DNA of 64,000 bases from a virus (lineage: Duplodnaviria; Caudoviricetes), in IMG/VR virus record IMGVR_UViG_3300043603_000010, positions 26,648-90,647 of that record; one strand, given 5' to 3'. Numbering within the stretch: the stretch's first letter is position 1; each line of letters opens with the position of its first letter. The notes below the pieces were generated by a model, which saw only the letters and a list, made by a program, of their open reading frames with translations, was not told the origin of the DNA and did no database searches. Below are positions 9,999-64,000 of this stretch, one piece after another. The translations under genes were made by a program, and so were the position numbers.

Positions 9999-10523
9999 GT
10001 GACCTGGAGCCCGCCGTTCACAGCGGTGGCGGGGAGCGTGTTCACCGCTGCCCAATTCAATCAGTACGTGAGGGACAACCTCAACGAGACCGGACCGGCG
10101 ATCGTAACGGCGGCCGGGCAGTACCTGGTCTCCGACGCGGCGAACTCGCTCGCGGCCCGCTCCCCGTCCCGTGCTTCGGTCAACACCAGCCAGACCACGA
10201 CCGCCACGTCCTACGGGGACCTGGCCACCGTCGGCCCGGTCGTGACCGTGGTCACCGGCACGTCCGCCCTGGTGACCATCGGGTCCGCGCTCCAGAACTC
10301 GGGTACCGCCAACTCCCTGATGGGGTGGGCCGTCTCCGGGGCGTCCACCATCGCGGTCACGGACGACGTCGGCGGGGCGTACGGCACCACCGGCGCCACG
10401 GTCACCGGGACCTTCCTCCAGACCGGGCTCACCCCGGGTTCGAACGTCTTCACTGCCAAGTACCAGGTCTCCGCCGGTACCGGGACCTTCACCTTCCGGA
10501 ACATCACGGTGCTTCCGTTTTGA
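9999..10523 (+). CDS. minor tail protein
   Basis: MTWSPPFTAVAGSVFTAAQFNQYVRDNL N-terminus typical of actinophage minor tail proteins; Thr/Gly-rich. Confidence 0.75.
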   Translation: MTWSPPFTAVAGSVFTAAQFNQYVRDNLNETGPAIVTAAGQYLVSDAANSLAARSPSRASVNTSQTTTATSYGDLATVGPVVTVVTGTSALVTIGSALQNSGTANSLMGWAVSGASTIAVTDDVGGAYGTTGATVTGTFLQTGLTPGSNVFTAKYQVSAGTGTFTFRNITVLPF

Positions 10524-10783
10524 CCACCGTCAAGCAGTACGTGCAAGCGATCCGGCCGGTGGCCCGGAAAGTCGGCCAGGCCATGGGAGCGGACGTCGGG
10601 ATCCAGTCGGAGGAGCAGCGCATCACGCTCAACCTGATTATGGGCATGGTGTGCGTCCTGATCAAACTCCTGGTGGACGCCGGACTGATCACCGACGCAC
10701 AGGTGACCGTGGCGTTCCAGACGTTCCTCAGCACGCCGAACGACTATCCGGACGTGCCGCCGCAACCGCCGTACGGCAACTGA
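10520..10783 (+). CDS. hypothetical protein (tail-associated)
   Basis: TTGA coupling to upstream gene; GC3-biased frame. Confidence 0.55.
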   Translation: MTTVKQYVQAIRPVARKVGQAMGADVGIQSEEQRITLNLIMGMVCVLIKLLVDAGLITDAQVTVAFQTFLSTPNDYPDVPPQPPYGN

Positions 10784-10796
10784 CCGAGAGGGTTCC

Positions 10797-11879
10797 ATGC
10801 GCATCACGGTCTACCCGGCGGACACCGCCGGTTGCGGCAGCTACCGGTTGCGGTGGCCCGCGCAGGCGCTCATCGCGCAGGAGAGCGGCCACACGATCCG
10901 GGTCCTGGACCCCGAGCAGCGCGACATCGAGCTGAAGATCAAGGACAACGCGGTGGAGCGCCTGGTCCTGCCGAAGGAACCGCCGGACCTGGTGGTCATG
11001 CAGCGGCTCACCCACCCGTGGATGGCTGCTGCCGTCCCGTTTCTGCGCGCTGCGGGGATCGCCGTGGTGGTCGACGTCGACGACGACCTGTCCGCGATCC
11101 ACCCCCGTAATCCTGCGTACATGAGCATGCACCCGCGACCGGCCCGGCTCGCGCAGCAGTACCGGGGGGAGATCCGGCACTCCTGGCAGAACCTGGTGTC
11201 CGCCTGTCAGGACGCGACCCTGGTCACCTGCTCGACTCCCGGACTGATGCCGGTCTACGCCCCGCACGGGCGCGGCGCCGTGGTGCGCAACTGCGTACCG
11301 GAGCGGTACCTGAAGGTGGAGCACCAAGACAGCGACGTGATCGGCTGGCCCGCCGCGCTGGTCTCCCACCCCGACGATCCCGGCGTGGTCGGCGGAGCGG
11401 TCGCCCGCATCGTCGGCGAAGGCGCGCAGTTCTGTACTGTCGGCCCGGCCACGGGGACCGGCGCGGCGTTCGGCCTGCTGCGCGACCCGGCCGGAGCGGA
11501 GATCGAGGACCTGTACGCGTGGCCGGACGCGGTGGCCGAGCTGGGCATCGGCATCGCCCCGCTGGCCGACACCCGGTTCAACCGGTCCAAGTCGGCGCTG
11601 AAGCCGCTGGAGCTGTCTGCTGTCGGCGTGCCGTGGGTCGGCTCGCCCCGGCCGGAGTACGCACGGCTGAACGCGCAGGGCTGCGGTGTGCTCGCCGACA
11701 CGCCCCGGCGCTGGTACAAGGAGCTGAAGAAGCTCCACAACGACGAAAAAGCCCGCACCGACCTCTCTGCCGGTGGCAGGGAAGCGGTGCGGGCGATGAC
11801 GATCGAGGGAAACGCGTGGCGCTGGCTGGAGCTGTGGGAACTGGCCGTGAAGATGCAGCGCGGTCAGGCGCCGGGATAG
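10797..11879 (+). CDS. glycosyltransferase (GT-B/GT4-like)
   Basis: MRITVYPADTAGCGSYRL start, VVDVDDDL, IGIAPLADTRFNRSKSALKPLELSAVGVP motifs. Confidence 0.85.
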   Translation: MRITVYPADTAGCGSYRLRWPAQALIAQESGHTIRVLDPEQRDIELKIKDNAVERLVLPKEPPDLVVMQRLTHPWMAAAVPFLRAAGIAVVVDVDDDLSAIHPRNPAYMSMHPRPARLAQQYRGEIRHSWQNLVSACQDATLVTCSTPGLMPVYAPHGRGAVVRNCVPERYLKVEHQDSDVIGWPAALVSHPDDPGVVGGAVARIVGEGAQFCTVGPATGTGAAFGLLRDPAGAEIEDLYAWPDAVAELGIGIAPLADTRFNRSKSALKPLELSAVGVPWVGSPRPEYARLNAQGCGVLADTPRRWYKELKKLHNDEKARTDLSAGGREAVRAMTIEGNAWRWLELWELAVKMQRGQAPG

Positions 11880-12226
11880 CCGATATCCCTGGCAAGCTTC
11901 ATGTAGTAGTCCACGAGGCTGACCGGTTCACCGGCCCGCACGGGCACGGGGTCGTCCCCGAAATAGATGGTCTGGTGGTCCTTGCGGGCGTTCGCGGTGA
12001 CCGGCGGCTGCGGTCGGAAGAACGCGACGACCAGGTCCGTCCATTCGCCGTGCACCAGTTCGCCCTGGCCCGGGACGGTGTCCCACGCCGTGGTGGCCGT
12101 CCACTCGTCACCGGTCCAGGTGTAGGTGATGACCAGGTCCCCGGCCCAGTCGTTCTGACTGTCCTCCAGGTGGACCCGGGTCATAACCGGTCCGGCCGTT
12201 GTCTCCAGATGTGTCGAACGGATCAT
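11864..12226 (-). CDS. hypothetical protein
   Basis: AGGAGAG RBS; last gene of the - strand arm, converging on the GT gene. Confidence 0.65.
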   Translation of the reverse strand: MIRSTHLETTAGPVMTRVHLEDSQNDWAGDLVITYTWTGDEWTATTAWDTVPGQGELVHGEWTDLVVAFFRPQPPVTANARKDHQTIYFGDDPVPVRAGEPVSLVDYYMKLARDIGYPGA

Positions 12227-35332: not shown

Positions 35333-36015
35333 AGCCCGTACTCCTCCTTCACCCGGTCCACGGCCCGCGCGAACCGGCCGTCCGAAACGAAAGCCTCCCA
35401 TGCGGCACGGTCGGCGGTGTCCACGGAGGGCGCGTTCACTTCCGCGTACCGGTCGTCCCACGGCGCGGTTCCGCCCACCGGGTGCAAGTGCTCGATCACT
35501 ACGTCCGGCAGGTGGACCAGACCGCCCAGAGCCTGCCCCAGGGCGAGCCAGAAGTTGTCGGCATACAGATGCGTGAGCACCGGCGGGGCGAAGAACCCCA
35601 GCGCGGTCACGACCCGGGACGGCATGAACACGGCCGTGGGCAGGTTCGCCCCCTGGATCCGGTCGTCGCCGTAGACCACGGCCGGGCCCTCGCGGTCCAG
35701 CGCGCTCTGGACGGCGGTGTCCCAGTGCTCGGTGCGCGGCAGGTGGTCATCCCCCATGAAGCCGATCCACGGGTACCGGTCGGCGTACTTCAGCGCCACC
35801 TGGTTCAGCGTGCCGACCAGCCGCAGCCGGGGGCCCATCGCCACCCGGTCCAGCCCGATCTCCAGGTAGCGGCCCCGCTCGGGGTCGTCGTCGTCCAGCG
35901 CGTACAAGAAATCGGCGCACCTGGAATGGGTCTCCAGGCGCGCCGTCTCCAGTCGCCGGACGTTATCCGGTCGCCCCCGGGTGGGAACGACAACGAGAAT
36001 ACGTCCTTTGCCCAT
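35329..36015 (-). CDS. glycosyltransferase family 2
   Basis: VVVPTRGRP, GFMGDDH, YADNFW, EHLHP. Confidence 0.85.
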   Translation of the reverse strand: MGKGRILVVVPTRGRPDNVRRLETARLETHSRCADFLYALDDDDPERGRYLEIGLDRVAMGPRLRLVGTLNQVALKYADRYPWIGFMGDDHLPRTEHWDTAVQSALDREGPAVVYGDDRIQGANLPTAVFMPSRVVTALGFFAPPVLTHLYADNFWLALGQALGGLVHLPDVVIEHLHPVGGTAPWDDRYAEVNAPSVDTADRAAWEAFVSDGRFARAVDRVKEEYGL

Positions 36016-36017
36016 GT

Positions 36018-36452
36018 TCAGTCCTTCTCCCTGTTGGACGGTGCCTTCCAGGCGGCAATTCCCAGCACCGCCACGATTCCGAGAGCCAGCACGGACCCGG
36101 CCATGGCCTGGAATCCGGCGACGACCGTCCCGAACAGCGCCATCGCCAGGAAGACGACAGCTGCCACTGCTCCCAGCACGATAGCGACAGCTCCCGCAGC
36201 GAGCGGAATCCCGACGAATCCGAGAATGACCCACTGCCCGTGCTTGTCCAGCGGACCCGCTTCCTTTTCAGCGGGCGGAGCCTGTGGCGGGGCGGCGTGG
36301 TAGTGGACGTGCACGCTGGACCCGCCCGACGGCGGCACCCCGTGCGGGTACCTGCTCAGCGCAGCGGCTTCCCGGATGGCCCGGGACACCTGGTCCTGCG
36401 CGGGCAGGTCCGGGTCGTAGGGCTCGATCTCCCCGTACACCGGCTCAGGCAC
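36018..36452 (-). CDS. membrane protein (Spd-like candidate)
   Basis: Long C-terminal hydrophobic hairpin; downstream of traB. Confidence 0.65.
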   Translation of the reverse strand: MPEPVYGEIEPYDPDLPAQDQVSRAIREAAALSRYPHGVPPSGGSSVHVHYHAAPPQAPPAEKEAGPLDKHGQWVILGFVGIPLAAGAVAIVLGAVAAVVFLAMALFGTVVAGFQAMAGSVLALGIVAVLGIAAWKAPSNREKD

Positions 36453-36729
36453 GGCGCCGCTCCTTCCGCAGTTCGGCCCAGGCGGTCACCAGGTAGATGC
36501 CCAGGCACAGCATCACGTCGGCCGCCAGCAGCATGACCTCCGCCTTGGCGAACGCGTCCGTGCGCATCGGCGGGTTGTGCGCGCCGGTGTAGGACGCCAG
36601 CACCAGGAACGCGACGATGCCGAGCACCCAGTGCACCCCCCGGGCCGTCCGGGTGGCGAACCCCTTCCGGACGATGTCGTTCACGGTCCAGCGGGCCTGG
36701 TGTGCCGCCTTGCGGCGGATCTCCTTCAT
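36445..36729 (-). CDS. membrane protein (Spd-like candidate)
   Basis: Two TM helices; AAGGAGG RBS. Confidence 0.65.
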   Translation of the reverse strand: MKEIRRKAAHQARWTVNDIVRKGFATRTARGVHWVLGIVAFLVLASYTGAHNPPMRTDAFAKAEVMLLAADVMLCLGIYLVTAWAELRKERRRA

Positions 36730-36803
36730 GATCGTTCCTCCTTCTTGTCACATTCGTGTCGCACGCCGTCTGACGCGAGACCCTTCTTAAGGCCAGATGC
36801 CGT

Positions 36804-36879
36804 TTGACAGCTCCTGACACGCTCTGACAGACCCTGGACAGACACTGACAAACAGGTCACGTCTGACAGGCTCTGACAT
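36804..36879. repeat. phased CTGACA direct repeats (clt-like) immediately after the traB stop
   Basis: TGACA cores at 36805, 36815, 36825, 36846, 36864, 36874 plus TGGACA at 36835. Confidence 0.75.
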
Positions 36880-38861
36880 CATCCGCCGTAGCCGTTGACC
36901 GACCGCAGCTGCGTCCGGATCCGGTACAGCGCCTTGCCGTCGCCCTCTTCCAGGACTCCGGTCTCCAGGAGGCGCTTCAGTTCGTCGTAGACCCAGGTGC
37001 GGCCCTTGCCGATCTCCGCCACCCAGTCCTTGAAGTCCGATCCCCGGACTTCAAGGACGCCATCGGCAGCCATCTCTTCGATCTTCATGGCCAGCGCTTC
37101 GCGTGCTTCGTCGGCGCCCACCACCTCCTCCGGTGCGGCCTGCGGCAGGTTGCCGATAGCTCGGACCGGCGGCAGTTCCTGAGTGATGTCCACAGGTCCG
37201 TCCTCCGTCTCCTTGACCAGTTCAGGTCCCTGAGTCTCTTCGTCGGCGTCTTCGTCGGTGCCGTCCGGCATGTCGACCGGGACCAGCGGCAGCCTCGCCG
37301 TGATCGCCTGGTCGGTCAGGCTCGGGATCCCGGCTCCGAGCCGCATCTTCGTGCCCGGGTCCATTTCCGCCCACATCCCCGCGTCCCGGCTCGCGTCCAG
37401 TTCCGCCCGGATCTCCGCGTCGGAGACGTCGAACGTCCGAGCCGCGATAGGCCATTCCTCCGACGGGATCCCGATGAGTTCCGCGTAGTGCATTCCGGGG
37501 TAATTGGCCTTCCACTGCGTGGGGTCGGCCCCGGATTCCAGCGTCTTCGGATTCATCGAGAACTTGGCGTCGTACATCTCGGAGCAGCCGTGGGTAATGC
37601 TCTGAGTAAGGAGTCCTCGCGACTTCCTTTCCAGGTTGCTGCCGTGCGCACTCTGGAGGGACGCTACGACGACCAGGCCGCTGGAGCGCCCGGTACGGAC
37701 CGCTTCGTCGAATGCCGGATTTTCCCCGTCCAGCGTGGTGGTGGCCTCCTCGAAGTCGACCACCACCAGCGGGATCCGGTGCTTCGTCCAGCACTCGGGG
37801 ACCCACTGCTTGTACCCCAGGCTCCCGAGCAGGTCAGAACGGTAGCCGATGGCGTCCACCAGGTTCTTCGCCATCCGGCGGCACTGGGCCTTGTCCACGG
37901 CGGCCAGCCCCAGCGTGTCCGCGATGTCTCCGAAGTCCTGGTAGAACTTGTTCGGGTTGGCCACCACCGGGACGAAGTCGGAGCGCCAGCGGCCCAGCAT
38001 GATGATGATCCGCATGGTCTGGGTCTTCCCGGCGTTCGGCGCGCCGGTGAGCAGGATGTGCCCGGTCGCCCGGGGCTCGCTGGCCTTGCTCCCCGGCGAT
38101 CCGCAGACCCACAGGCCTACCGGCCGGTTGTCCGTGCGCATGCCGTAGACCAGCGGGGAGTCTGCCACCGAACCGCCGCGCTGGGACGGTCCGGCCCAGG
38201 TCACGCGCTTGTCCAGCTGGGAAGCAGCTGTGATCACAATGTCCGCCTGGTCCTCGCGGCCGGGCACCCGGCGCACTGCCACCTGCTCGGTGCCGACCCG
38301 CGCGTTCGAGGCGATCCGGGTCTTCTCCAGCTGGACGTCCCCGACCGTCTTCGGCCGGTTCAGCTGGACACGTGCCGTGACCTGGTCTTCCTCCACCGTG
38401 ACCGTCTTGGCGCGAGACCCCTTGATGGCGTCGATGCCCTTGGCGATCCGTCCCATGCCGTCGTCCGCGCTGGCAGCCCGGTCGTTCTCGTGCGGGACCG
38501 CGAACCCGGTGATACGCAGCCACCAGGAGGAGATCAGGAACAGCGTGCCCAGACCCCAGGCGTCCAGCATGCCGGGACTGTAGGGACCGGTGGCCGTGGC
38601 CATCGACACCCAACCGGCCACCGCACCGGTGAAGACCGTCGCGTGCAGCCGGGTCTGCCGGTGCCGCTTGTGCCAGGTGTGGTGAGTCAGCCCGGTCAGG
38701 CAGACAGCTCCGGCACCGATGATCGTGTCAACGACCGTGTTCCCGCCCCAGACGAAGTTCGTGACCATGGCCACAGGGTAGGCCGCGCAGCACGCGACGA
38801 CCGGTGCCAGGTATGCCGACCTGTTGTTACCGTCCTTCGTCGCCTTGACCTTCTTCGCCAT
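36879..38861 (-). CDS. traB: TraB-like FtsK/SpoIIIE DNA translocase (Streptomyces conjugation type)
   Basis: N-terminal TM helices, GSVADSPLVYG, Walker A GAPNAGKT, Walker B VVVDFEEA, RSSG...SLQ, C-terminal wHTH (RTWVYDELKRL). Confidence 0.85.
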   Translation of the reverse strand: MAKKVKATKDGNNRSAYLAPVVACCAAYPVAMVTNFVWGGNTVVDTIIGAGAVCLTGLTHHTWHKRHRQTRLHATVFTGAVAGWVSMATATGPYSPGMLDAWGLGTLFLISSWWLRITGFAVPHENDRAASADDGMGRIAKGIDAIKGSRAKTVTVEEDQVTARVQLNRPKTVGDVQLEKTRIASNARVGTEQVAVRRVPGREDQADIVITAASQLDKRVTWAGPSQRGGSVADSPLVYGMRTDNRPVGLWVCGSPGSKASEPRATGHILLTGAPNAGKTQTMRIIIMLGRWRSDFVPVVANPNKFYQDFGDIADTLGLAAVDKAQCRRMAKNLVDAIGYRSDLLGSLGYKQWVPECWTKHRIPLVVVDFEEATTTLDGENPAFDEAVRTGRSSGLVVVASLQSAHGSNLERKSRGLLTQSITHGCSEMYDAKFSMNPKTLESGADPTQWKANYPGMHYAELIGIPSEEWPIAARTFDVSDAEIRAELDASRDAGMWAEMDPGTKMRLGAGIPSLTDQAITARLPLVPVDMPDGTDEDADEETQGPELVKETEDGPVDITQELPPVRAIGNLPQAAPEEVVGADEAREALAMKIEEMAADGVLEVRGSDFKDWVAEIGKGRTWVYDELKRLLETGVLEEGDGKALYRIRTQLRSVNGYGG

Positions 38862-38897
38862 GACCGAACCTCCCTCCAGAACCGTTGTGAGCTGGGA

Positions 38898-39302
38898 CTA
38901 CTTGTGCGTCTTAGACCGGCCGCTGTACCCGGCCTTCGCTTTGGCCTCCTTCTCCGCCAGCGCCGTCTCCACTTCGACGATCAGTTCCACTGCCGCGTGG
39001 TAGGCCTGGATGAAGTCGCTGGCCGCGTCCCCCATGTGGTCGGACGCGTTGTCGAGCTTGCGCAGCACCTTCCGGGTGAAGCGCCAGTTCCCGACCTTCA
39101 GCGCTTTGAGCTGGCGCTTCAGCTCGCCTTTGACTTCGCCACCTGCTCCGGCCACTTCGACCGCGAGGTAGTGCGACACCTTGCGCCCCGCCTCGCAGTA
39201 ATCGCGGAAGGCGTCCATGAACTCGTCGAAGTCCTTGTAGTTGTACAGCTCCATCGAATCCAGGGTCTTGATCTGTGCAGGCAGCGTCTCTGCTTTCGGC
39301 AT
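38898..39302 (-). CDS. TraA-like small helical transfer protein
   Basis: Directly upstream of traB as in Streptomyces plasmid/AICE tra operons; helical 134 aa; family call rests mainly on synteny. Confidence 0.55.
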   Translation of the reverse strand: MPKAETLPAQIKTLDSMELYNYKDFDEFMDAFRDYCEAGRKVSHYLAVEVAGAGGEVKGELKRQLKALKVGNWRFTRKVLRKLDNASDHMGDAASDFIQAYHAAVELIVEVETALAEKEAKAKAGYSGRSKTHK

Positions 39303-39329
39303 CTCCGGTCTCCTTCGGGTCAGGCCGGA

Positions 39330-40628
39330 TCAGGCCGGACGCCTGATCCCTTGGATGATCCGTCGTACGCTGTCCTGCTTCACGTCGGGCCGCTCCCGGA
39401 CGATGTCTCCCACGATCAAGCCGGGATCGGTCATCCCCGCGTCCAGCCGTTCCAGGACCAGCGCCTTGATCGACTTCCGGATGGACACCGGAATGGATTC
39501 CGGACTGAGGTCCGGACGCGGTCCGGAATCCGGAGTCCAGTCCGGAGACACGCCCGGATCCGGGACCAGCATGTCCGGGCAGTGCTCCCAGACGAAGTCG
39601 CGCAGCTCCCCTGTGAACTCGAACCATTCCGTACTCGGGACGTTGGTTCCGTAGAAATCCGGATTGCTCGGGGTGTGCAGAACCGGGATCCGGTAGGCCG
39701 CGAAGCGGTCGTGGACCGCGCGTTCGTAGGCGTGCCCCCCCGCCAGCGTCAGCATGACGTCATCGGGTGAGTACCTCATGTACGACGTCCTCTGAGGGAT
39801 GTTGACGGTTGCTCCGATCTTCATCCGGTGCCCGTCCCTGAGGAAGTAGACCACCGGGGGGTGGGGACCTTCGCGGGGAACAGGGACGGGCGTCCCATCC
39901 GGAAGGAGTCCGGTCGGGACCGGAGAGCCGTCCGGAAGAATCCGGGCCCTGTAAATGGACCACGGGGATTGCTCCGGATCGGAGACCCGGGAATCTGAAC
40001 CCTGTCCGGATTCCAGAGCCAGCCGGAGGCGGTCCGTCCTGGACGTGGTCCGGAGGAGTCCGCGCTGGGCATCCGCTCTGGCCAGCTGGGCGGTGATCTT
40101 GGACCTCTCCTTGTCCAGCCACCCCCGGGTGTCCGGATCAAGTTCGGTCGAACTGTGCTTCATGACCAGATGCCACATGGACTTGCTCACGGCTGCGACC
40201 AGGGATCCGCACAGGCCCGCGATCAGGTGCCCCTGCTGGTAACCGTGCAGGGCGATCAGGGCCATGGACACCGCCAGAGACAGCCACCCGGCCCGGCGGG
40301 GAGCGTCAGCCCGTGCATCGTCGTACCGGGAGAGCCACTCCAGCGTCAGAGCGGTGATCCAAGCCAGGTCGAACACTCCTGCCACCAGGTACGCCGTCCA
40401 GGGAGGTGCCACCGTGGACAGGAGAGAGCCGATCGCAACCGTGCTCCACACCACAGCGCCCGCCACCACCAGCACCGTCAGTACGGTGACCGCCCGGAAC
40501 GCGGCTGCTTCCACGTCCAGGGGTGCCACAGGGACGTTCACGGTGTACTCCTGGTCGATCCTGTTGGTCACCCCGTCCACAGTGTGGTCCACCGGACGAG
40601 TCCGGATCTCCTTCCGGAAGTTCCTCAC
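39330..40628 (-). CDS. Spd/DUF2637-like membrane protein fused to a T5orf172 (GIY-YIG-like) domain
   Basis: TM bundle (VWSTVAIGSLL...AGVFDLAWI); later VVYFLRDGHRMKIG...ERAVHDRF...WFE; PD/PE-rich linkers. Confidence 0.7.
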   Translation of the reverse strand: MRNFRKEIRTRPVDHTVDGVTNRIDQEYTVNVPVAPLDVEAAAFRAVTVLTVLVVAGAVVWSTVAIGSLLSTVAPPWTAYLVAGVFDLAWITALTLEWLSRYDDARADAPRRAGWLSLAVSMALIALHGYQQGHLIAGLCGSLVAAVSKSMWHLVMKHSSTELDPDTRGWLDKERSKITAQLARADAQRGLLRTTSRTDRLRLALESGQGSDSRVSDPEQSPWSIYRARILPDGSPVPTGLLPDGTPVPVPREGPHPPVVYFLRDGHRMKIGATVNIPQRTSYMRYSPDDVMLTLAGGHAYERAVHDRFAAYRIPVLHTPSNPDFYGTNVPSTEWFEFTGELRDFVWEHCPDMLVPDPGVSPDWTPDSGPRPDLSPESIPVSIRKSIKALVLERLDAGMTDPGLIVGDIVRERPDVKQDSVRRIIQGIRRPA

Positions 40629-40709
40629 TCCAGCCTCCTGACTTAGTCCATTCGTCCAACCGGTCAGGCTAATGGAAGCAGGGCGGAGGAAGATTGTCCA
40701 ATGCGCCCA

Positions 40710-40818
40710 TCCGGATCCGGACAAAGGACTTCTGCACAGCATCCGGATCCGGATGGAACACCAGAATCGATCCGGACTCTTCCGGACTGGTCCCGGAAGG
40801 AATCCGGAAGAGTCCGGG
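40710..40818. repeat. dense TCCGGA repeat cluster upstream of the transfer operon
   Basis: Exact TCCGGA at 40710, 40716, 40742, 40748, 40771, 40781, 40803 plus near copies. Confidence 0.75.
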
Positions 40819-40869
40819 TCTGACGAAGCCCCGGACACCGAGTGTCCGGGGCAGTCCGTCCGCTGTCCG

Positions 40870-40992
40870 TCAGCGACGGTTCCAGCGGTTGTTCGCCTTG
40901 CGGTTGGCCAGCCAGAGGATGAGGCCCGTCCCGCACCAGACGACGGCTCCCCATGCTCCGGTGTCGCCGTGCTCCAGAAGCCGGTAGATCAT
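40870..40992 (-). CDS. small membrane protein (40 aa)
   Basis: ATGA coupling; WGAVVWCGTGLILWLA. Confidence 0.5.
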   Translation of the reverse strand: MIYRLLEHGDTGAWGAVVWCGTGLILWLANRKANNRWNRR

Positions 40993-41657
40993 GACGTCAA
41001 CTCCGTGACGCGGGGCTTCCCGGCCGTGCTGCTCGGGTTGACAAACCAGATCCACGTCTTGCAGTTCACATGGTGGAACCGTGCTCCGGCGTCCAGGAGG
41101 TTGAGCAGGTATCCTTCGTCCTCGCCCCGGTATCGGCCGTCCGGCAGTACTTCGCCTTCCGGGAAGCCCCCTGCACGGCGCGCCGTCTCCGCACGGACCA
41201 TGTGCGTGATCGGGATGAAGGAGCCGCGCACCCGGATGTGCTCTTCGAACTCGGGGCACCAGCGCAGCCCCCACGGCGAGTAGGGCCACATGCCCTGGTA
41301 GGTGGTCGCCGTCGGGTCGAACCCGTGCTCCATGACCGGGACCGGGTAGACCAGGTCGACACCCGGATCCGCTTCGAAGGTGCGGGCCAGGACGTCGATG
41401 TGCCGGGGCAACAGGTGGTCGTCGTCGTCCAGCCAGGCGACCAGGTCCGTGTCCACCCGGGCCAGCAGCCGGTTGCGGGCCGCAGCGGCGCCGGAGCGCC
41501 CTTCGTCCCGGTCGACCAGGATCCGGTCCGGCTGGCGGGTCTGCGCGTGCACCGAGGCGACCGCGCGCCGGTACAGCGCTTCGCGGCCGGGGATCGTCGG
41601 GACGGCGACCGAGACCGTCAGCCGCTTGCGGCCGGGGTTGCGCCTGTGCTGACCCAT
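40989..41657 (-). CDS. glycosyltransferase family 2
   Basis: VAVPTIPGR, GAAAARNRLL, AWLDDDD, GED motifs. Confidence 0.85.
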   Translation of the reverse strand: MGQHRRNPGRKRLTVSVAVPTIPGREALYRRAVASVHAQTRQPDRILVDRDEGRSGAAAARNRLLARVDTDLVAWLDDDDHLLPRHIDVLARTFEADPGVDLVYPVPVMEHGFDPTATTYQGMWPYSPWGLRWCPEFEEHIRVRGSFIPITHMVRAETARRAGGFPEGEVLPDGRYRGEDEGYLLNLLDAGARFHHVNCKTWIWFVNPSSTAGKPRVTELTS

Positions 41658-41971
41658 CAGATCCACCCGTTTCCGTCGCTGGGCTGCGCCACGCCGGACT
41701 CCGGGTGGATCCGGCTGCGTCGGCGCCGCACAGAATCGTGCGCGTCGAAAGCCTCCTCCAGGTCGGCCAGACGCCGAGCCAGCGTCAGCACAGCGGTTAG
41801 CGCGCCTCCGGAGGACAAGTCCATCTTCAGCAGCAGGCTCAGCTCCGCCAGGTCCAGCGCGTCCTCCCGGCTGTAGGGGACGCCTTCGATCCGCCACGCG
41901 AACGGCGGTACTGCCGGGTCGGCCTGGGCTGCCAGCAGCCGAAGGCAGTCGTCCTTCGTCGGCCGCTTCAT
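41657..41971 (-). CDS. hypothetical protein
   Basis: ATGA coupling. Confidence 0.55.
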   Translation of the reverse strand: MKRPTKDDCLRLLAAQADPAVPPFAWRIEGVPYSREDALDLAELSLLLKMDLSSGGALTAVLTLARRLADLEEAFDAHDSVRRRRSRIHPESGVAQPSDGNGWI

Positions 41972-42267
41972 GCCTGGTTCCCGGTGCAGCGGCAGTCGTC
42001 GTCCAGCAGGCCGCAGGTCTCGCAGCGGGTCCGGTCCACCGGGAAGGGCTTCAGCAGGGAGACTCTCACTGGTCCGCCCAGACCGATGTTCAGCAACCGG
42101 AAGAAAGCACTCATGTCGGCTCCAGCTTCTGTCACGGTAATCCCGGCTACGAGCGGAGCGCCCTCGGAGTGTTCGGCCTTGTACTGCGCGGCCCGTCGGC
42201 GCAGTACCTGGTTCAGAGCCCGGTCCGGGTCGGGACGCCTGATCTTCGGAGCGAGGATCACCGGCAC
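41968..42267 (-). CDS. hypothetical protein with C-terminal CxxC...CxC
   Basis: RCETCGLLDDDCRC. Confidence 0.55.
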   Translation of the reverse strand: MPVILAPKIRRPDPDRALNQVLRRRAAQYKAEHSEGAPLVAGITVTEAGADMSAFFRLLNIGLGGPVRVSLLKPFPVDRTRCETCGLLDDDCRCTGNQA

Positions 42268-42515
42268 GGCAGGTCACCTCCCGCAGCCCAGCGGACCACG
42301 CCCCCGCCCTCCAGGCACGGACGGACCCGGCCCGCGTTGCGCAGCCGGTCCAGGGCGTTGTACACCAGCGAGGTGCGCAGGTCCATCTTCTCCGCCAGCT
42401 CGTTCCGGGTCGCCGGTCCGCCGGTCTCCAGCAGCGCGTACACGGCGTCGTCCCGCGCCTCACACGCGGGGTCGCGCGGCCTGCCCCTCGGCTTGGCCTC
42501 CTGCTCGGTGCTCAT
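42258..42515 (-). CDS. winged-HTH DNA-binding protein
   Basis: PATRNELAEKMDLRTSLVYNALDRLRNAGRV. Confidence 0.75.
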   Translation of the reverse strand: MSTEQEAKPRGRPRDPACEARDDAVYALLETGGPATRNELAEKMDLRTSLVYNALDRLRNAGRVRPCLEGGGVVRWAAGGDLPCR

Positions 42516-46728: not shown

Positions 46729-49251
46729 TCAGCCTCCCACCTTCCGCATGTGCCGGTCCATGGCCCGGCTGGCTTCGTGCACGGCTACCAGGTCGGAGAC
46801 CTGGCCCATGTTCATGAACGGCGTGATCTGATCGTTCAGGCCGATCCGGCGGGCCCGGGAGACCAGCGGCAGGGACGGCGGCTTGCGCTTCCAGGACGCG
46901 CCACGGCGCACGTTCAGGTCGGACATCTGGTCAGCCACCTCTTCCGCCCACGCCATCGCCAGACCCATCGGCAGGGCGCGGTGCTCGGTGTACACCGACT
47001 TCCCGGCCAGGTCGACGGTGATCACGTCCCACTGCCCGGGGAACTCCCGGGCGGGCCAGAGCGCGACGTGCCCAGCCGGAGTCGGGACGAACTGCACGCC
47101 CGCGTACGTCCGCAGCCAGTTCTGCGACGACGCGGCGAAGACGTCCAGGTCCCGCTGCTTGATGACGAACCGGACCGACCCGGCGGACACCGGGGCGTTG
47201 GAGCGCTCCTCCTGGGAGACGGCCGCCTCCATCAGCGTCTCGCCCTCGCGGACGGAGAGGACTTCGCCCTCCGACAGGTCCTCCAGGGTGGCCAGCGTGC
47301 CGCCGGTGCCGCCCAGCACCAGCAGCAGCGCGTCCTGCTTGCCCGGGTAGGGGCGCAGCGCGCGTCCGGCCATCTGCTGGAACAGCGGTGCCGACCGGGT
47401 CGGCCGGGCGATCACCGCGCAGTCGATCCACGGGAAGTCCGCGCCCTCGGTGAGGACGCCGACGTTCACGATGGCCTGGAGCGCGCCGGTCCGGGACGCT
47501 TCGTAGATCCGCTGGCGCTCGGGGTGCGGTGTCGTCCCGGTGACGGTGCCGCAGCCGATACCGACGGCAGCCAGCTCCCGGGCGACCGCTGCGGCGACCG
47601 ACACCAGCGGCGTGAACACGAGCATCCGGCGGTCCCGGGCGTGCTCCGCCACGGCGCGGGCGACGAACTTCGGCGCCTCCGCCTCCAGCATCGCCTCACC
47701 CAGCGCCCGGTCCTGGTAGTCCCCACCGGAGCGCTTCACACCGGACAGGTCCATCTCCATGCCGACGCCCACCGCGCGCACGTCGGCGAGGTAGCCGCGA
47801 GCGATCATCCACAGCACGGTCTTCCGGTACGCCACACCGTCCCAGGCGGAGCCCAGCCCGACACCGTCCCCGCGCGCCAGCGTGGCGGTGAAGCCGATGT
47901 TCCGCGCGCCGGGGAACGCTTCGCGGATCCGGACATATGAGCTTGAAATAGAATGATGGCAGTTGTGCACAACGGTTCCGCCGTTGATCAAGTAGGTGTG
48001 CGTGGTGTCCACTGCGATGTTGTAGACCAGACCGTTCGGACACACTCCTCCGTACGTTCCATCGCTTCCAGGTTCGAGAACCTCAACGTGATCCACCCCA
48101 AGGAAGCCAGGCGTGCGTCCCGGCGCTGATCCGATTTTTGGCGGGCCAGAGGACAGTGCGACCCCCCGTCCACTTCTACGCACACCTTCATCGCCGGGTG
48201 AGCGATGTCTGCTTTGTAGTGCCGGGGATGCTCCCCGTCGCCCGGCACTACTGTAACTTCCGTCGGCCACCCCAGCAGGGACGCCAGCTTGGCCTGAGCC
48301 TCCGGCAGCGGCTTCCCGTTCCCACCTTGTACGGACGGCTTGTGCTCGATACTCCGGAGAGTTGCCGCCATTTTGGCCCGCGTCTCCGGAGAGTGCATGG
48401 GGTTCTTCCGGCGCATCCGCTCCGACGCGTACTTCTGGTTGGTCCTGGCCATCCGTTCGGACGATGCCCGGCGCACCCATGTGTCTCGGCACGCATCCGA
48501 GCAGTACGTCCGCCCTCTGCTCCGATAGCTGTCGATCTTCGATTTGCTGATCAGAGTTACCTGAGAACCGCACTCCGTGCACACTGCTTCTATCGGCGTT
48601 CGCGTCATGTGCAAACGATAGCACCCGGACACCATTCGAAAGCTCCCCGGCCTGACGCCAACCTGCGGCAGTCATCACCGGGTGATTCGGCGTACACACG
48701 AAGAACGATCCATTGCCCAGAGTGACTCGGACCAGGGCGGACGGCCGCTTGTGCATGGTCTGGGTCACATACCGCGATTCCCGCAGACCGGTCGCTTCGT
48801 TGTACGACGGCACCAGATCCCCGACCCGCAACATCTCGATCGGAACGTCCCCGACCAGAGTTCCCGCCGGGAAGCACTCGTCATGGACGACCATGCCGAA
48901 CTCCCCGGCGTCCACCAGCTTCCTCAGCCGGGCCGCGCGGGACGCGGTCTGCACGCTGGCGACCACGACCGGCGCGGCCACGTCGTCGTCCTTCGCCTGG
49001 ACCCGGCCGACGGTCAGGTGCGGCGCCACCCGGAGCAGCTTGTCCACGGTCTGCCGGGCCAGTTCGTCCCGGTGGACCAGGACCAGGGTGCGCCCGCCGG
49101 TGCTGTCGGCGTACTCCTTGACCAGGTGGGACAGGACGACGGTCTTGCCCGCGCCGGTCGGCAGCACGACGGCCGGACGGACCAGGTCGGACGCGGTCAC
49201 CGCGTCCACGCATTCGCGCTGGTAGGGCCGCAGGGGGAGCAGGTCACTCAT
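46729..49251 (-). CDS. SF2 (DEAD/DEAH-like) helicase containing an intein
   Basis: LRPYQ, LPTGAGKT, VVHDE|C...HN|CHH, GFTAT, NVGVLTEGADFP, QQMAGRALRP; true start ATG 49251. Confidence 0.92.
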   Translation of the reverse strand: MSDLLPLRPYQRECVDAVTASDLVRPAVVLPTGAGKTVVLSHLVKEYADSTGGRTLVLVHRDELARQTVDKLLRVAPHLTVGRVQAKDDDVAAPVVVASVQTASRAARLRKLVDAGEFGMVVHDECFPAGTLVGDVPIEMLRVGDLVPSYNEATGLRESRYVTQTMHKRPSALVRVTLGNGSFFVCTPNHPVMTAAGWRQAGELSNGVRVLSFAHDANADRSSVHGVRFSGNSDQQIEDRQLSEQRADVLLGCVPRHMGAPGIVRTDGQDQPEVRVGADAPEEPHALSGDAGQNGGNSPEYRAQAVRTRWEREAAAGGSGQAGVPAGVADGSYSSAGRRGASPALQSRHRSPGDEGVRRSGRGVALSSGPPKIGSAPGRTPGFLGVDHVEVLEPGSDGTYGGVCPNGLVYNIAVDTTHTYLINGGTVVHNCHHSISSSYVRIREAFPGARNIGFTATLARGDGVGLGSAWDGVAYRKTVLWMIARGYLADVRAVGVGMEMDLSGVKRSGGDYQDRALGEAMLEAEAPKFVARAVAEHARDRRMLVFTPLVSVAAAVARELAAVGIGCGTVTGTTPHPERQRIYEASRTGALQAIVNVGVLTEGADFPWIDCAVIARPTRSAPLFQQMAGRALRPYPGKQDALLLVLGGTGGTLATLEDLSEGEVLSVREGETLMEAAVSQEERSNAPVSAGSVRFVIKQRDLDVFAASSQNWLRTYAGVQFVPTPAGHVALWPAREFPGQWDVITVDLAGKSVYTEHRALPMGLAMAWAEEVADQMSDLNVRRGASWKRKPPSLPLVSRARRIGLNDQITPFMNMGQVSDLVAVHEASRAMDRHMRKVGG
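47962..48876 (-). mobile_element. intein (305 aa) inserted in helicase motif II
   Basis: N-terminal CFPAGTLV, block B CTPNHPVMT, block F VYNIAV...HTY, C-terminal VVHN followed by Cys. Confidence 0.93.
47988..48608 (-). CDS. Vsr/DUF559-like endonuclease nested out of frame within the intein
   Basis: CTECG...YCSDAC Zn motif, NPMHSPETRAKMA (NUMOD3-like), YKADIA...VEVDGGSH...DARLASLGWITLRFSN. Confidence 0.88.
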   Translation of the reverse strand: MTRTPIEAVCTECGSQVTLISKSKIDSYRSRGRTYCSDACRDTWVRRASSERMARTNQKYASERMRRKNPMHSPETRAKMAATLRSIEHKPSVQGGNGKPLPEAQAKLASLLGWPTEVTVVPGDGEHPRHYKADIAHPAMKVCVEVDGGSHCPLARQKSDQRRDARLASLGWITLRFSNLEAMERTEECVRTVWSTTSQWTPRTPT

Positions 49252-52117: not shown

Positions 52118-52182
52118 AGAAAGATTATGTCATACAGCGCAGAAGATAGTCAATGAGCGTAGCTTGTTGTATGCTGAGGGCA
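52110..52182. promoter_or_regulatory. divergent promoter region between the two arms
   Basis: - strand TTGACT (52148-52153)-18 bp-CATAAT (52124-52129); + strand TATGCT (52170-52175) 6 nt before ATG 52182; TGTCATA direct repeats at 52112 and 52128. Confidence 0.7.
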
Positions 52183-52430
52183 TGACTGAGACACGAGAGA
52201 GCACGTCGGGCGCGGAAGCTCCCCCCGGCGACCTGGTCCCGATCCGGGAAGCGGTGGAGATCGCGGGGGTGTCCCGGCGCACCCTTGAGAACTGGATCAA
52301 CGCCGGTCTCCTGGACAAGTACGTGAGGGACCTGAACCGCACCTACGTCAGCCGGGGCCAGCTGCTTGAGCTGCGGACCCCGCGCAAGGTGCTCCCGGAG
52401 GCGGGGCAGGTAGTACCGTCCGAGGACTGA
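52182..52430 (+). CDS. HTH DNA-binding protein (excisionase/MerR-like)
   Basis: IREAVEIAGVSRRTLENWINAGLL. Confidence 0.8.
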   Translation: MTETRESTSGAEAPPGDLVPIREAVEIAGVSRRTLENWINAGLLDKYVRDLNRTYVSRGQLLELRTPRKVLPEAGQVVPSED

Positions 52431-63645: not shown

Positions 63646-64000
63646 ATGGGACACCACAGGCGTCCGAAGCCGGTGACGACAGCGACCCGTGTTGCGGTTG
63701 CGGTGGCCGTCGGCGGATCCGCCACCACTGCCGGGATCGCCACAGCACACGCCGCGTCCGTCAGCACCTGGGATGCGGTTGCCCAGTGCGAGAGCAGCGG
63801 AAACTGGTCCGACAACACCGGGAACGGCTACTTCGGAGGGCTCCAGTTCTCTCCGTCCACCTGGTCCGCCTACGGCGGCAGGGCCTACGCACCCGAAGCG
63901 TCCGGCGCCACCAAGGCGCAGCAGATCGCCGTGGCGGAGAAGGTCCTGGCCTCGCAGGGACCCGGCGCGGGGGCCGGCGGGGGGCCCCGCGCCGGCCGCA
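63646..64000 (+). CDS. secreted Rpf-family transglycosylase (truncated by window)
   Basis: AGAAGGAG RBS; signal-like N-terminus; [13 protein letters not shown]...[15 protein letters not shown]...[14 protein letters not shown]. Confidence 0.92.

Follow-up and report, generated by a model that had tools for sequence, protein, structure and literature searches.

A Streptomyces plasmid-type TraB module conserved in a clade of large tailed phages

The TraB-containing gene module described here is best explained by a clade of tailed phages that carries a double-stranded DNA (dsDNA) transfer apparatus of the Streptomyces plasmid type and uses it to move the phage genome, an explanation that we consider rather likely. 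As a part of this explanation, and with the same degree of confidence, the TraB apparatus is regarded as a core, vertically inherited component of the clade genome. TraB was present in all 23 of the near-complete capsid-clade genomes checked. Since each of these relatives carries the gene for the putative pump, the phage family can probably pass DNA between hyphae without virus particles.

Gene content and context of the module

The window analyzed here, a stretch of 64,000 nucleotides, belongs to an IMG/VR record of 90,647 bp (IMGVR_UViG_3300043603_000010) with a CheckV completeness of 100%. One ORF spans both ends of the record, and the map therefore closes. The record encodes a virion and lysis set (TerL, portal, MuF/protease, major capsid protein, major tail protein, tape measure protein and endolysin) as well as the replication proteins PolA and D5 primase. 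The window is part of a complete, circularly closing 90.6-kb tailed phage with a Streptomyces-like host. The module, whose genes were called by GC3, occupies window positions 36018-40870 on the minus strand throughout and is co-oriented with the flanking phage genes and with the replication and recombination genes. It consists, in this order, of a 432-aa membrane protein, a TraA-like protein, TraB, a direct-repeat array and two small membrane proteins. A first-pass annotation of the same DNA had described a co-oriented module among phage genes with tail and replication functions, and this description was confirmed.

TraB (660 aa; 36879-38861, minus strand) was assigned by the NCBIfam model NF041214 (plasmid_TraB), by alignment with TraB of plasmid pSN22, and by AlphaFold and Foldseek. 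The match to NF041214 has an E-value of 1.9e-101, with residues 16-651 falling on profile positions 8-635 of 639, and its score of 340 bits compares with an equivalog cut-off of 800. Judged by its sequence, the phage protein is a divergent member of the plasmid TraB family rather than an equivalog or orthologue. The alignment with pSN22 TraB, which is annotated as a plasmid transfer protein, is collinear (27% identity, E 3e-41) and covers the Walker motifs and the winged helix-turn-helix (wHTH) domain, which aligns with those of both pSN22 and pJV1. The AlphaFold model (pLDDT 76) comprises four transmembrane (TM) helices (residues 14-119), a beta domain (150-250), a P-loop motor of the FtsK fold (265-510), a disordered linker and a winged helix (583-648). 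When this model was searched by Foldseek, the best matches were the FtsK motor structures 6t8o and 2ius (E ~1e-13), and the combination of TM segment, FtsK-type ATPase and wHTH domain proposed at first sight was thereby recovered. Walker A reads GAPNAGKT (273-280), and a Walker B-type acidic motif ends at E372. The module looks functional, because G273, G278 and K279 of Walker A, together with E372, do not vary among 26 homologues whose identity is only 30-75%.

The relationship of TraB to septal FtsK is confined to the level of the fold. The score with Pfam FtsK_SpoIIIE was 11.4 bits, below the cut-off of 24, and the match was limited to the surroundings of the P-loop; no FtsK model was found among the NCBIfam matches at E<=0.1. 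The first-pass annotation had called for HMM and phylogenetic comparison with FtsK; the plasmid TraB model matched from end to end, and no grouping with septal FtsK was observed. In a tree rooted on plasmid TraBs, the phage TraBs formed one well-supported clade with a long stem, beside which chromosomal TraBs of Streptomycetaceae branched. This single clade and its long stem point to an old acquisition of TraB followed by its retention.

Directly upstream of traB lies the gene for a TraA-like protein of 134 aa with no TM helix (38898-39302, minus strand). It matched NCBIfam NF041213 (plasmid_TraA) at E 1.8e-6, with 28 bits against a cut-off of 80, and pSN22 TraA by BLASTP at E 4e-4. Moreover, the positional orthologues in relatives L002 and L007 matched NF041213 at E 4e-5 and 1e-7, respectively. 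The position and these matches, of which that of the phage protein scores below the cut-off, are compatible with the TraA-like label given earlier. Pfam at E<=0.01 gave no match for TraB, the TraA-like protein or the small proteins of the module, and it was NCBIfam that resolved TraB and the TraA-like protein.

The 432-aa membrane protein (39330-40628, minus strand) has four TM helices. Its gene had previously been drawn as a 502-aa ORF from 40838, which over-extends into a non-coding leader; the likely start is the GTG at 40628, in the context AGGAGG-n5-GTG. The protein has a hydrophobic N-terminal domain (approximately residues 37-160) with several TM helices predicted by hydropathy, a T5orf172/MUG113 (GIY-YIG-like) domain identified by Pfam at residues 261-340, and an HTH-looking C-terminus; it matched phrog_35187 at E 1e-50. 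Homologues of its N-terminal domain are encoded by small plasmids (pADI95-16c, Protofrankia) and by the phages SF3 and TurkishDelight (gp97). Its positional counterparts in relatives L016 and L002 have a homologue in pZL12.73c (E 5e-34). Downstream of the repeats, a 94-aa protein (36445-36729, minus strand) has two TM helices predicted by hydropathy, with small two-TM positional counterparts after the repeats in L006, L007 and L010, and no family match in Pfam, PHROG or NCBIfam. It is followed by a 144-aa protein (36018-36452, minus strand) with a Pro-rich N-terminus, two or three TM helices by hydropathy and weak tblastn counterparts in L007 and L010. The presence of two membrane proteins at this end of the module had been noticed before and is borne out by hydropathy.

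All three membrane proteins are Spd-like by position only. This putative label draws on their position, their TM helices and the relatives on small plasmids; BLASTP against the spd-region proteins of pSN22 and pJV1 gave no match. The 432-aa protein had initially been called Spd/DUF2637-like: it is a membrane protein in an Spd-like position, whereas a search of the complete record for DUF2637 (PF10935) found nothing even at E<=10, nor did hmmscan at E<=0.1. As for possible alternative pumps, gp100 of phage TurkishDelight and the pSITFR-21c neighbours had no family match.

Immediately downstream of traB is an array of seven phased direct repeats of the (C)TGTCAG(A) type with a spacing of ~10 nt (36803-36879, minus strand), the first of which overlaps the traB stop codon. 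This array corresponds to the repeat tract seen in the initial reading. CTGACA occurs eight times in the 64-kb window, and five of these copies fall within 65 nt at the array (genome-wide Poisson tail 5e-12). The relatives have arrays at the corresponding place downstream of traB, clear ones (at least five copies) being found in 18 of 29 only. We suggest that the array is the equivalent of clt and a candidate docking site of TraB. When covariation between the recognition helix of the wHTH domain and the repeat sequence was sought, the alignment was good and no clear rule emerged.

Several other features were searched for around the module and in the record. None of the ten genes around the module has a GntR domain, so that the usual TraR/Kor repressor is without a counterpart there; a small HTH-like protein is encoded at 42258-42515, and the HTH_24 match is weak in relative L007. 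A search of the record with PF00589 gave no match to a tyrosine integrase, and no repeats flanking the module were found. The search for a lysogeny switch revealed no clear repressor, only an HTH_17/MerR-like protein encoded at 52164-52430. Among partition genes, only that of a ParB_N protein was found, with no obvious ParA. A simple promoter and terminator scan of the module yielded nothing useful. In comparisons with 50,697 phage records, a set from which records very close to the window may be excluded, megablast with the module gave no match and tblastn with TraB none at E<=1e-5.

Relatives of the phage and comparison with known elements

In all 23 near-complete relatives, TraB and the capsid gene are on one record, and at least 10 of these genomes have terminal repeats. 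The same combination was also found in the Streptomyces plasmid pS1D4-14.2 and in contig29 of NRRL S-455, and the chimeric assembly that had been raised as a concern does not apply. The clade has dozens of members, with sizes of ~78-98 kb. In the loci examined, TraB occupies a fixed syntenic place between glycosyltransferase genes, and the flanks are conserved. When the capsid protein alone was used as the query against metagenome contigs, one contig only was retrieved.

The relatives from cultured Streptomyces are separate replicons or contigs of ~93-102 kb, and one of them, pS1D4-14.2, encodes an integrase, ParB and an XRE regulator. Since relatives occur as the deposited plasmid pS1D4-14.2 and as such contigs, the clade has a host-resident form that would profit from mating. 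For the phage itself, plasmid-like residence is no more than possible, the genes in question being those of ParB_N and of its own PolA and primase, with no integrase or clear repressor found. The element had at first been labelled a phage-AICE hybrid, which is not the right term. AICEs combine integrase/excisionase, Rep and TraB, are integrated in a tRNA gene and have no virion genes. The phage resembles AICEs such as pSAM2 and SLP1 in its TraB-type dsDNA transfer system, but it differs from them in lacking a tyrosine integrase, in having a full virion gene set and in having a record that closes on itself. Given that the relatives from cultured strains form replicons or contigs of their own (~93-102 kb), the term "conjugative phage-plasmid-like element" fits better.

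The closest parallels in gene organization are the rolling-circle Streptomyces plasmids pSN22 and pJV1, whose TraB proteins belong to the pSVH1 TraB family. These plasmids and the phage have homologous TraA and TraB, a common TraB architecture (TM segment, FtsK-like motor and wHTH domain) and the common order traA, traB, direct repeats and small genes, the small genes of the phage encoding membrane proteins. In both, seven to nine repeats directly follow the traB stop codon, with the sequence CCGCACA(C/G) in the plasmids and a TGTCAG-type sequence in the phage. The repeats that directly follow traB in pJV1 are its proven clt, and PMC3583192 describes this clt as nine direct repeats. The differences are also evident: TraB identity is only 26-27%, and the phage protein falls short of the NCBIfam equivalog cut-off; the phage has no adjoining GntR-type TraR gene, and the carrier is a 90-kb tailed phage rather than an 11-kb plasmid.

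The experimental precedent for a dual-mode phage-plasmid is pZL12 (GQ919031; Zhong et al. 2010, J Bacteriol 192:3747), both a phage and a conjugative plasmid according to PMC3583192 and PMC4487206. Like the present phage, pZL12 is a ~90-kb Streptomyces element with a tailed virion and a conjugal transfer locus. The membrane protein pZL12.73c of its tra region is homologous to the protein upstream of traA in relatives of the phage. In contrast, its virion and replication genes are unrelated to those of the phage, its FtsK-like Tra protein pZL12.71c is only remotely similar (BLASTP E 0.58 with the phage TraB and E 1.7e-4 with the TraB model), and it has ParAB, an integrase and a GntR regulator. 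It has been treated as a singleton (PMC7157519), whereas the clade of the phage has dozens of members. In actinophages, Spd homologues of the SpdB2 type were proposed by Thoma et al. (2015) to spread phage DNA in the mycelium (PMC4447253). SF3 and TurkishDelight have relatives of the ~400-aa multi-TM protein only, whereas the phage described here also has TraA, TraB and a clt-like array.

In the usual description, virions are the vehicle of phage-plasmids and mating is that of conjugative plasmids (review PMC12282955). The one documented exception in Streptomyces is pZL12; here, the canonical set of TraA, TraB and clt appears as a core set of a large and apparently old phage clade. If the module works, a virus would be capable of receptor-independent spread, of escape from receptor-based resistance and of TraB-mediated mobilization of host DNA. 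Since Streptomyces sp. S1D4-14, which carries pS1D4-14.2, is in culture, this can be tested directly.

Proposed function and alternative readings

In the transfer that we favour, TraB would be inserted in the membrane by its four N-terminal helices and would form an FtsK-like hexameric ring. Its winged helix would dock on the TGTCAG array at the traB stop codon, and ATP hydrolysis would drive the phage genome, double-stranded and unprocessed, into a hypha in contact with the donor and/or through hyphal cross-walls. The TraA-like protein, the 432-aa protein and the two small membrane proteins would act as spread (Spd-type) helpers. What the sequences establish is homology, architecture, intact motifs, the repeats, conservation and synteny; DNA binding, pumping and virion-independent transfer are what we infer.

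TraB might instead be a segregation device that, in the manner of FtsK/SpoIIIE, clears or pumps a low-copy extrachromosomal phage genome through closing cross-walls and sporulation septa and thereby secures its inheritance by all compartments and spores, with no passage to other individuals. FtsK and SpoIIIE are paired with the short repeats KOPS and SRS, and the phage motor likewise has the FtsK fold and short repeats beside it; the core status of traB in every complete genome checked and the lack of an obvious ParA are also in keeping with such a role. However, its family is that of plasmid TraB rather than septal FtsK, its TraA-like and membrane partners stand in plasmid order, and the TGTCAG-type repeats form a single local array like clt rather than a genome-wide polar motif. 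In pSN22, pock formation, and with it transfer and spread, is linked to the traA gene, which also counts against segregation, and we judge this role to be unlikely. About equally low is the probability we give to a module that acts in the lytic cycle only, pushing replicating phage DNA from an infected compartment to those adjoining it within one mycelium for a larger burst, with no plasmid state or mating. Such spreading is what Thoma et al. suggested for the actinophage Spd homologues (PMC4447253), and it would suit a record with no integrase or clear immunity repressor found and a module co-oriented with replication and recombination genes. On the other hand, close relatives persist in cultured strains as separate replicons or contigs, including pS1D4-14.2 with its integrase, ParB and XRE regulator; moreover, the mechanism overlaps that of the favoured explanation and differs from it only in the timing of pump action.

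It seems improbable that the module serves host takeover, "kil" activity or exclusion, slowing host growth or blocking incoming plasmids, AICEs or the DNA of superinfecting phages while the phage genome is not moved. Unregulated traB is toxic in plasmids, in a kil-kor relation (PMC4447253), and no cognate repressor was seen here, but exclusion would have no need for a conserved sequence-reading winged helix with a cognate array on the phage's own DNA, and PADLOC gave matches at the P-loop level only, with no defence-family match beyond it. An artefact or passenger, whether a chimeric assembly, a recent AICE or plasmid insertion or a decaying relic, is very improbable. The record is metagenomic, and the 36-40 kb part has a GC content (0.66) a little lower than the mean of the record; nevertheless, the same combination of genes recurs in all 23 near-complete records as well as in a finished plasmid and contigs of isolates, the flanks are conserved in the loci examined and the map closes, integrase and flanking repeats were not found, the reading frames are intact and the catalytic residues are invariant.

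A second hexamer cluster shared with Streptomyces plasmids

Besides the clt-like array, a second, putative cis-element was newly noticed in the module. It is a cloud of 22 TCCGGA hexamers (39476-40808, no strand assigned) in mixed reading frames over the gene of the 432-aa protein and its leader. The hexamer is 11-fold enriched there, and 22 of its 99 copies lie within 1.5 kb (Poisson tail 1e-16), which makes the cloud the top cluster genome-wide. The non-coding leader (40629-40870, minus strand) contains a GC hairpin at ~40828-40850 after the upstream gene, seven TCCGGA copies in direct and inverted pairs, and the AGGAGG-n5-GTG start of the 432-aa protein. ATCCGG is found there in 9 of 176 copies (Poisson tail 9e-13), the strongest 100-nt hexamer cluster genome-wide. 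When hexamer clusters are ranked across the genome, the top two both fall within the module. In the favoured explanation, the cloud would serve as a second site in cis, with regulation or the tethering of DNA to the membrane as possible roles.

No description of such a second-tier cloud was found in the literature. An equivalent, lineage-specific cloud was detected in all 29 relatives examined and also in pSN22 and pJV1, where the motif inside the membrane-protein gene is CCGTGAGCG instead of TCCGGA and where the cloud-bearing gene lies downstream of traB, whereas it lies upstream of traA in the phage. A more far-reaching version of our explanation, which we put forward tentatively as possible rather than probable, is that a dual mode is obligatory throughout this widespread clade of Streptomyces phages of ~78-98 kb, which would disperse as virions and also rely on TraB-driven transfer or spread of naked dsDNA within and between mycelia. 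In this version, the pump would use cis sites of two tiers, a phased direct-repeat clt at the traB stop codon and a lineage-specific cloud in which 20-66 hexamers overlie the gene for the membrane protein, the second tier being common to pSN22 and pJV1. The cloud may be an unrecognized element of Streptomyces conjugation in general, and its occurrence in these two plasmids may point to a missing cis-element in the current model of that process.

TraB and the other genes of the transfer module

The five genes of the module lie co-oriented on the minus strand of window 36018-40870, along with two repeat features, which agrees with the operon described in the first-pass annotation. The product of the longest gene (660 aa; 36879-38861, minus strand) has no match in Pfam and is matched over its whole length by the NCBIfam plasmid_TraB model (NF041214, E = 1.9e-101), though its score of 340 bits falls short of the equivalog cut-off (800). 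BLASTP against pSN22 TraB gave a single collinear alignment of 634 residues (27% identity, E = 3e-41), spanning Walker A, Walker B and the C-terminal helix-turn-helix. In an AlphaFold model built from a 26-row alignment (mean pLDDT 76), four N-terminal membrane helices (residues 14-119) lead into a beta domain and a well-modelled P-loop domain (265-510), which a disordered linker connects to a winged helix (583-648). Walker A residues G273, G278 and K279, as well as E372, are invariant in 26 homologues (30-75% identical). Foldseek ranked FtsK motor structures at the top (E about 1e-13), followed by the conjugation coupling protein TcpA and EccC. Since the TraB model matches the full length, compared to only 11 bits at the P-loop for Pfam FtsK_SpoIIIE, the protein is a divergent TraB and not a septal FtsK, with the membrane, FtsK-type ATPase and winged-helix parts previously proposed from the sequence.

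The neighboring 134-aa protein (38898-39302, minus strand) matches plasmid_TraA (NCBIfam NF041213, E = 1.8e-6) and pSN22 TraA (E = 4e-4), in line with its TraA-like assignment; NF041213 is also matched by its positional orthologues in two relatives. Beyond a 149-nt gap after traB, the 94-aa (36445-36729) and 144-aa (36018-36452) minus-strand products are predicted to contain two to three membrane helices, in agreement with the membrane proteins claimed at first, and lack a family match. The 432-aa protein (39330-40628, minus strand) starts at 40628 with AGGAGG-n5-GTG; a longer ORF to 40838 was rejected, as it enters the non-coding leader. Its N-terminal domain is hydrophobic with several predicted membrane helices, and is followed by a T5orf172/MUG113 (GIY-YIG-like) domain and an HTH-looking tail. 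The DUF2637 label suggested for this protein could not be upheld (zero matches at E<=10). Relatives of its membrane domain were found in small actinomycete plasmids, adjoining Tra-like ATPases, and in phages SF3 and TurkishDelight.

Between a GT2 gene and the leader of the module, a small ORF of about 40 aa with one hydrophobic helix (40870-40992) stops just short of a GC hairpin. The module is bordered on both sides (32534-36015 and 40989-41666) by genes for glycosyltransferases, for two class I methyltransferase-like proteins and for an NAD-dependent epimerase; their products have 35-69% identity in relatives and may modify glycans of the virion or host envelope.

Two repeat features of phage and plasmid modules

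The repeat tract noted earlier (36803-36879) consists of seven direct repeats of the (C)TGTCAG(A) type, about 10 nt apart, the first of them at the traB stop codon; of the eight CTGACA copies in the window, it holds five. Direct reading of the pJV1 and pSN22 sequences revealed that their CCGCACA(C/G) direct repeats begin at the same place, directly 3' of the traB stop. The nine pJV1 copies are the described clt (PMC3583192), and clt regions hold direct 8-bp repeats recognised by the cognate TraB (PMC4447253). Arrays at the same place were also observed in phage relatives (such as nine TGTCAGG copies in L007), and 18 of 29 relatives have clear downstream arrays (at least 5 copies).

A second feature, on which the first-pass annotation was silent, is a cloud of 22 TCCGGA copies at 39476-40808, which spans the 432-aa gene in all three reading frames and is dense in its leader. 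In a hexamer cluster scan of the 90.6-kb genome, this cloud (Poisson tail 1e-16) and the TGTCAG array (5e-12) were the two strongest clusters. All 29 relatives have an equivalent cloud upstream of traB (15-66 copies, both orientations), largely within the membrane-protein ORF; the usual motif is (G/C/A)GGACA, with CGTCTC, CTGAGC or CGAAAG in some relatives. The phage cloud parallels one in pSN22 (L013, 5797-6400) and pJV1 (L014, 1093-1742), where 17-20 copies of CCGTGAGCG lie within the spdB-like membrane-protein gene and are distinct from the CCGCACA clt repeats that follow traB. No description of such CCGTGAGCG/TCCGGA-type clouds was found in the literature searched. The clouds might serve as operator arrays or as tether sites for TraB or the C-terminal domain of the membrane protein.

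TraB as a core gene of the phage clade

The window covers bases 26648-90647 of a 90,647-bp IMG/VR virus record. This record has a CheckV completeness of 100%, and genes were called by third-position GC because its GC content is ~68%. Elsewhere it encodes a large terminase, portal, MuF/protease fusion, major capsid protein, major tail protein, tape measure, endolysin, family A polymerase and D5-type primase, consistent with the tailed-phage context assigned initially. The map closes on itself, as one open frame crosses the record end/start join (window 63703-64000 to record 1-692), encoding an Rpf-like transglycosylase, a Gly/Ala/Pro linker, NlpC/P60 and a LysM-like tail. Its product is a secreted peptidoglycan hydrolase with candidate roles in lysis, tail or mating. 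Also encoded are an intein-bearing SF2 helicase (ResIII/Helicase_C, 46729-49251; PT-HINT and Intein_splicing matches at residues ~131-212) and, just upstream of the portal gene, a Ro60/TROVE and VWA protein (record 10410-12044).

TraB is a core gene of this phage clade and the record is not chimeric, so an artefact, passenger or relic is highly improbable. Thirty IMG/VR contigs have a TraB relative; a capsid gene is on the same record in 21 of 29 searched, including all 20 with a completeness of 90% or more (ten of these with direct terminal repeats). Two more complete records, found via capsid, both have TraB, giving 23 of 23 near-complete capsid-clade genomes together with this record. Streptomyces sp. 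NRRL S-455 and S. africanus each have TraB and capsid genes on a single ~93-96 kb contig. TraB has its top plasmid match (36% identity) on the 98.8-kb replicon pS1D4-14.2 from a cultured Streptomyces, which encodes capsid (59%) and portal (55%) homologues, a terminase and a tape measure; genes for ParB, for an integrase and for an XRE regulator are also present, and the flanks of the module agree (GT2, module, GT, methyltransferase, epimerase).

A profile search gave 447 representative TraB-family clusters (E<=1e-30). In a maximum-likelihood tree (omitting the fragments P0014 and P0026 and the partial loci L022 and L026), all phage-context TraBs formed one clade (SH-aLRT 100) with a long stem; with rooting on pSN22 and pJV1, Embleya and Yinghuangia chromosomal TraBs adjoin it, then Streptomyces ones. 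A 56.5-kb record with direct terminal repeats and a 51% identical capsid (IMGVR_UViG_3300009985_000001) has no TraB match and may be a smaller relative without the module. Conservation is far higher for a DUF932 protein (415 aa, 29772-31019), which has 83% identity with its counterparts in relatives L008 and L009, as against 40% for TraB.

Possible roles of the module

Judged from sequence, the module is probably a working TraB/clt system, which would carry the genome of the phage as double-stranded DNA within or between mycelia, independently of virions. It represents a divergent form of the pSN22/pJV1-type traA-traB-clt system. The absence of a TraR-type repressor and the divergent sequence count against virion-free transfer. 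The same pump might act during lytic infection only, which differs in timing and seems unlikely, and FtsK-like segregation of a resident genome into compartments and spores, despite the FtsK motors among the structural matches, is equally doubtful. A kil or exclusion role is less probable still. Neither a tyrosine integrase nor a clear repressor was found in the record, which encodes a ParB_N protein. Hundreds of proteins make up the capsid family, and several of them are encoded on ~92-102 kb contigs from cultured Streptomyces, whereas capsid identity to the nearest isolated phages is just 28-33%; thus, most of what is known of the clade comes from plasmid-like residents and metagenome contigs. 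This pattern is compatible with a phage-plasmid-like life, short of proof for this member.

Virion plus transfer has one experimental precedent, the plasmid-phage pZL12 (PMC3583192, PMC4487206). The pZL12 phage is unrelated to the present one, and its FtsK-like Tra is no more than a remote relative of this TraB, although one of its tra-region membrane proteins is homologous to the membrane protein of the clade's relatives. Spd homologues on actinophages have been suggested to spread phage DNA (Thoma et al. 2015, PMC4447253). What is of interest here is a whole phage clade with TraB as a core gene, and a two-tier repeat architecture common to that clade and classical plasmids.

The membrane domain of the 432-aa protein is also carried by the isolated 93.6-kb phage TurkishDelight (L029, 69598-73802) and the circular 103.5-kb Streptomyces plasmid pSITFR-21c (L031, 16658-21330). 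In both, it is followed by conserved ~300-, ~136- and ~424-aa proteins with no family match and without TraB, a gene set that may represent a different spread cassette.
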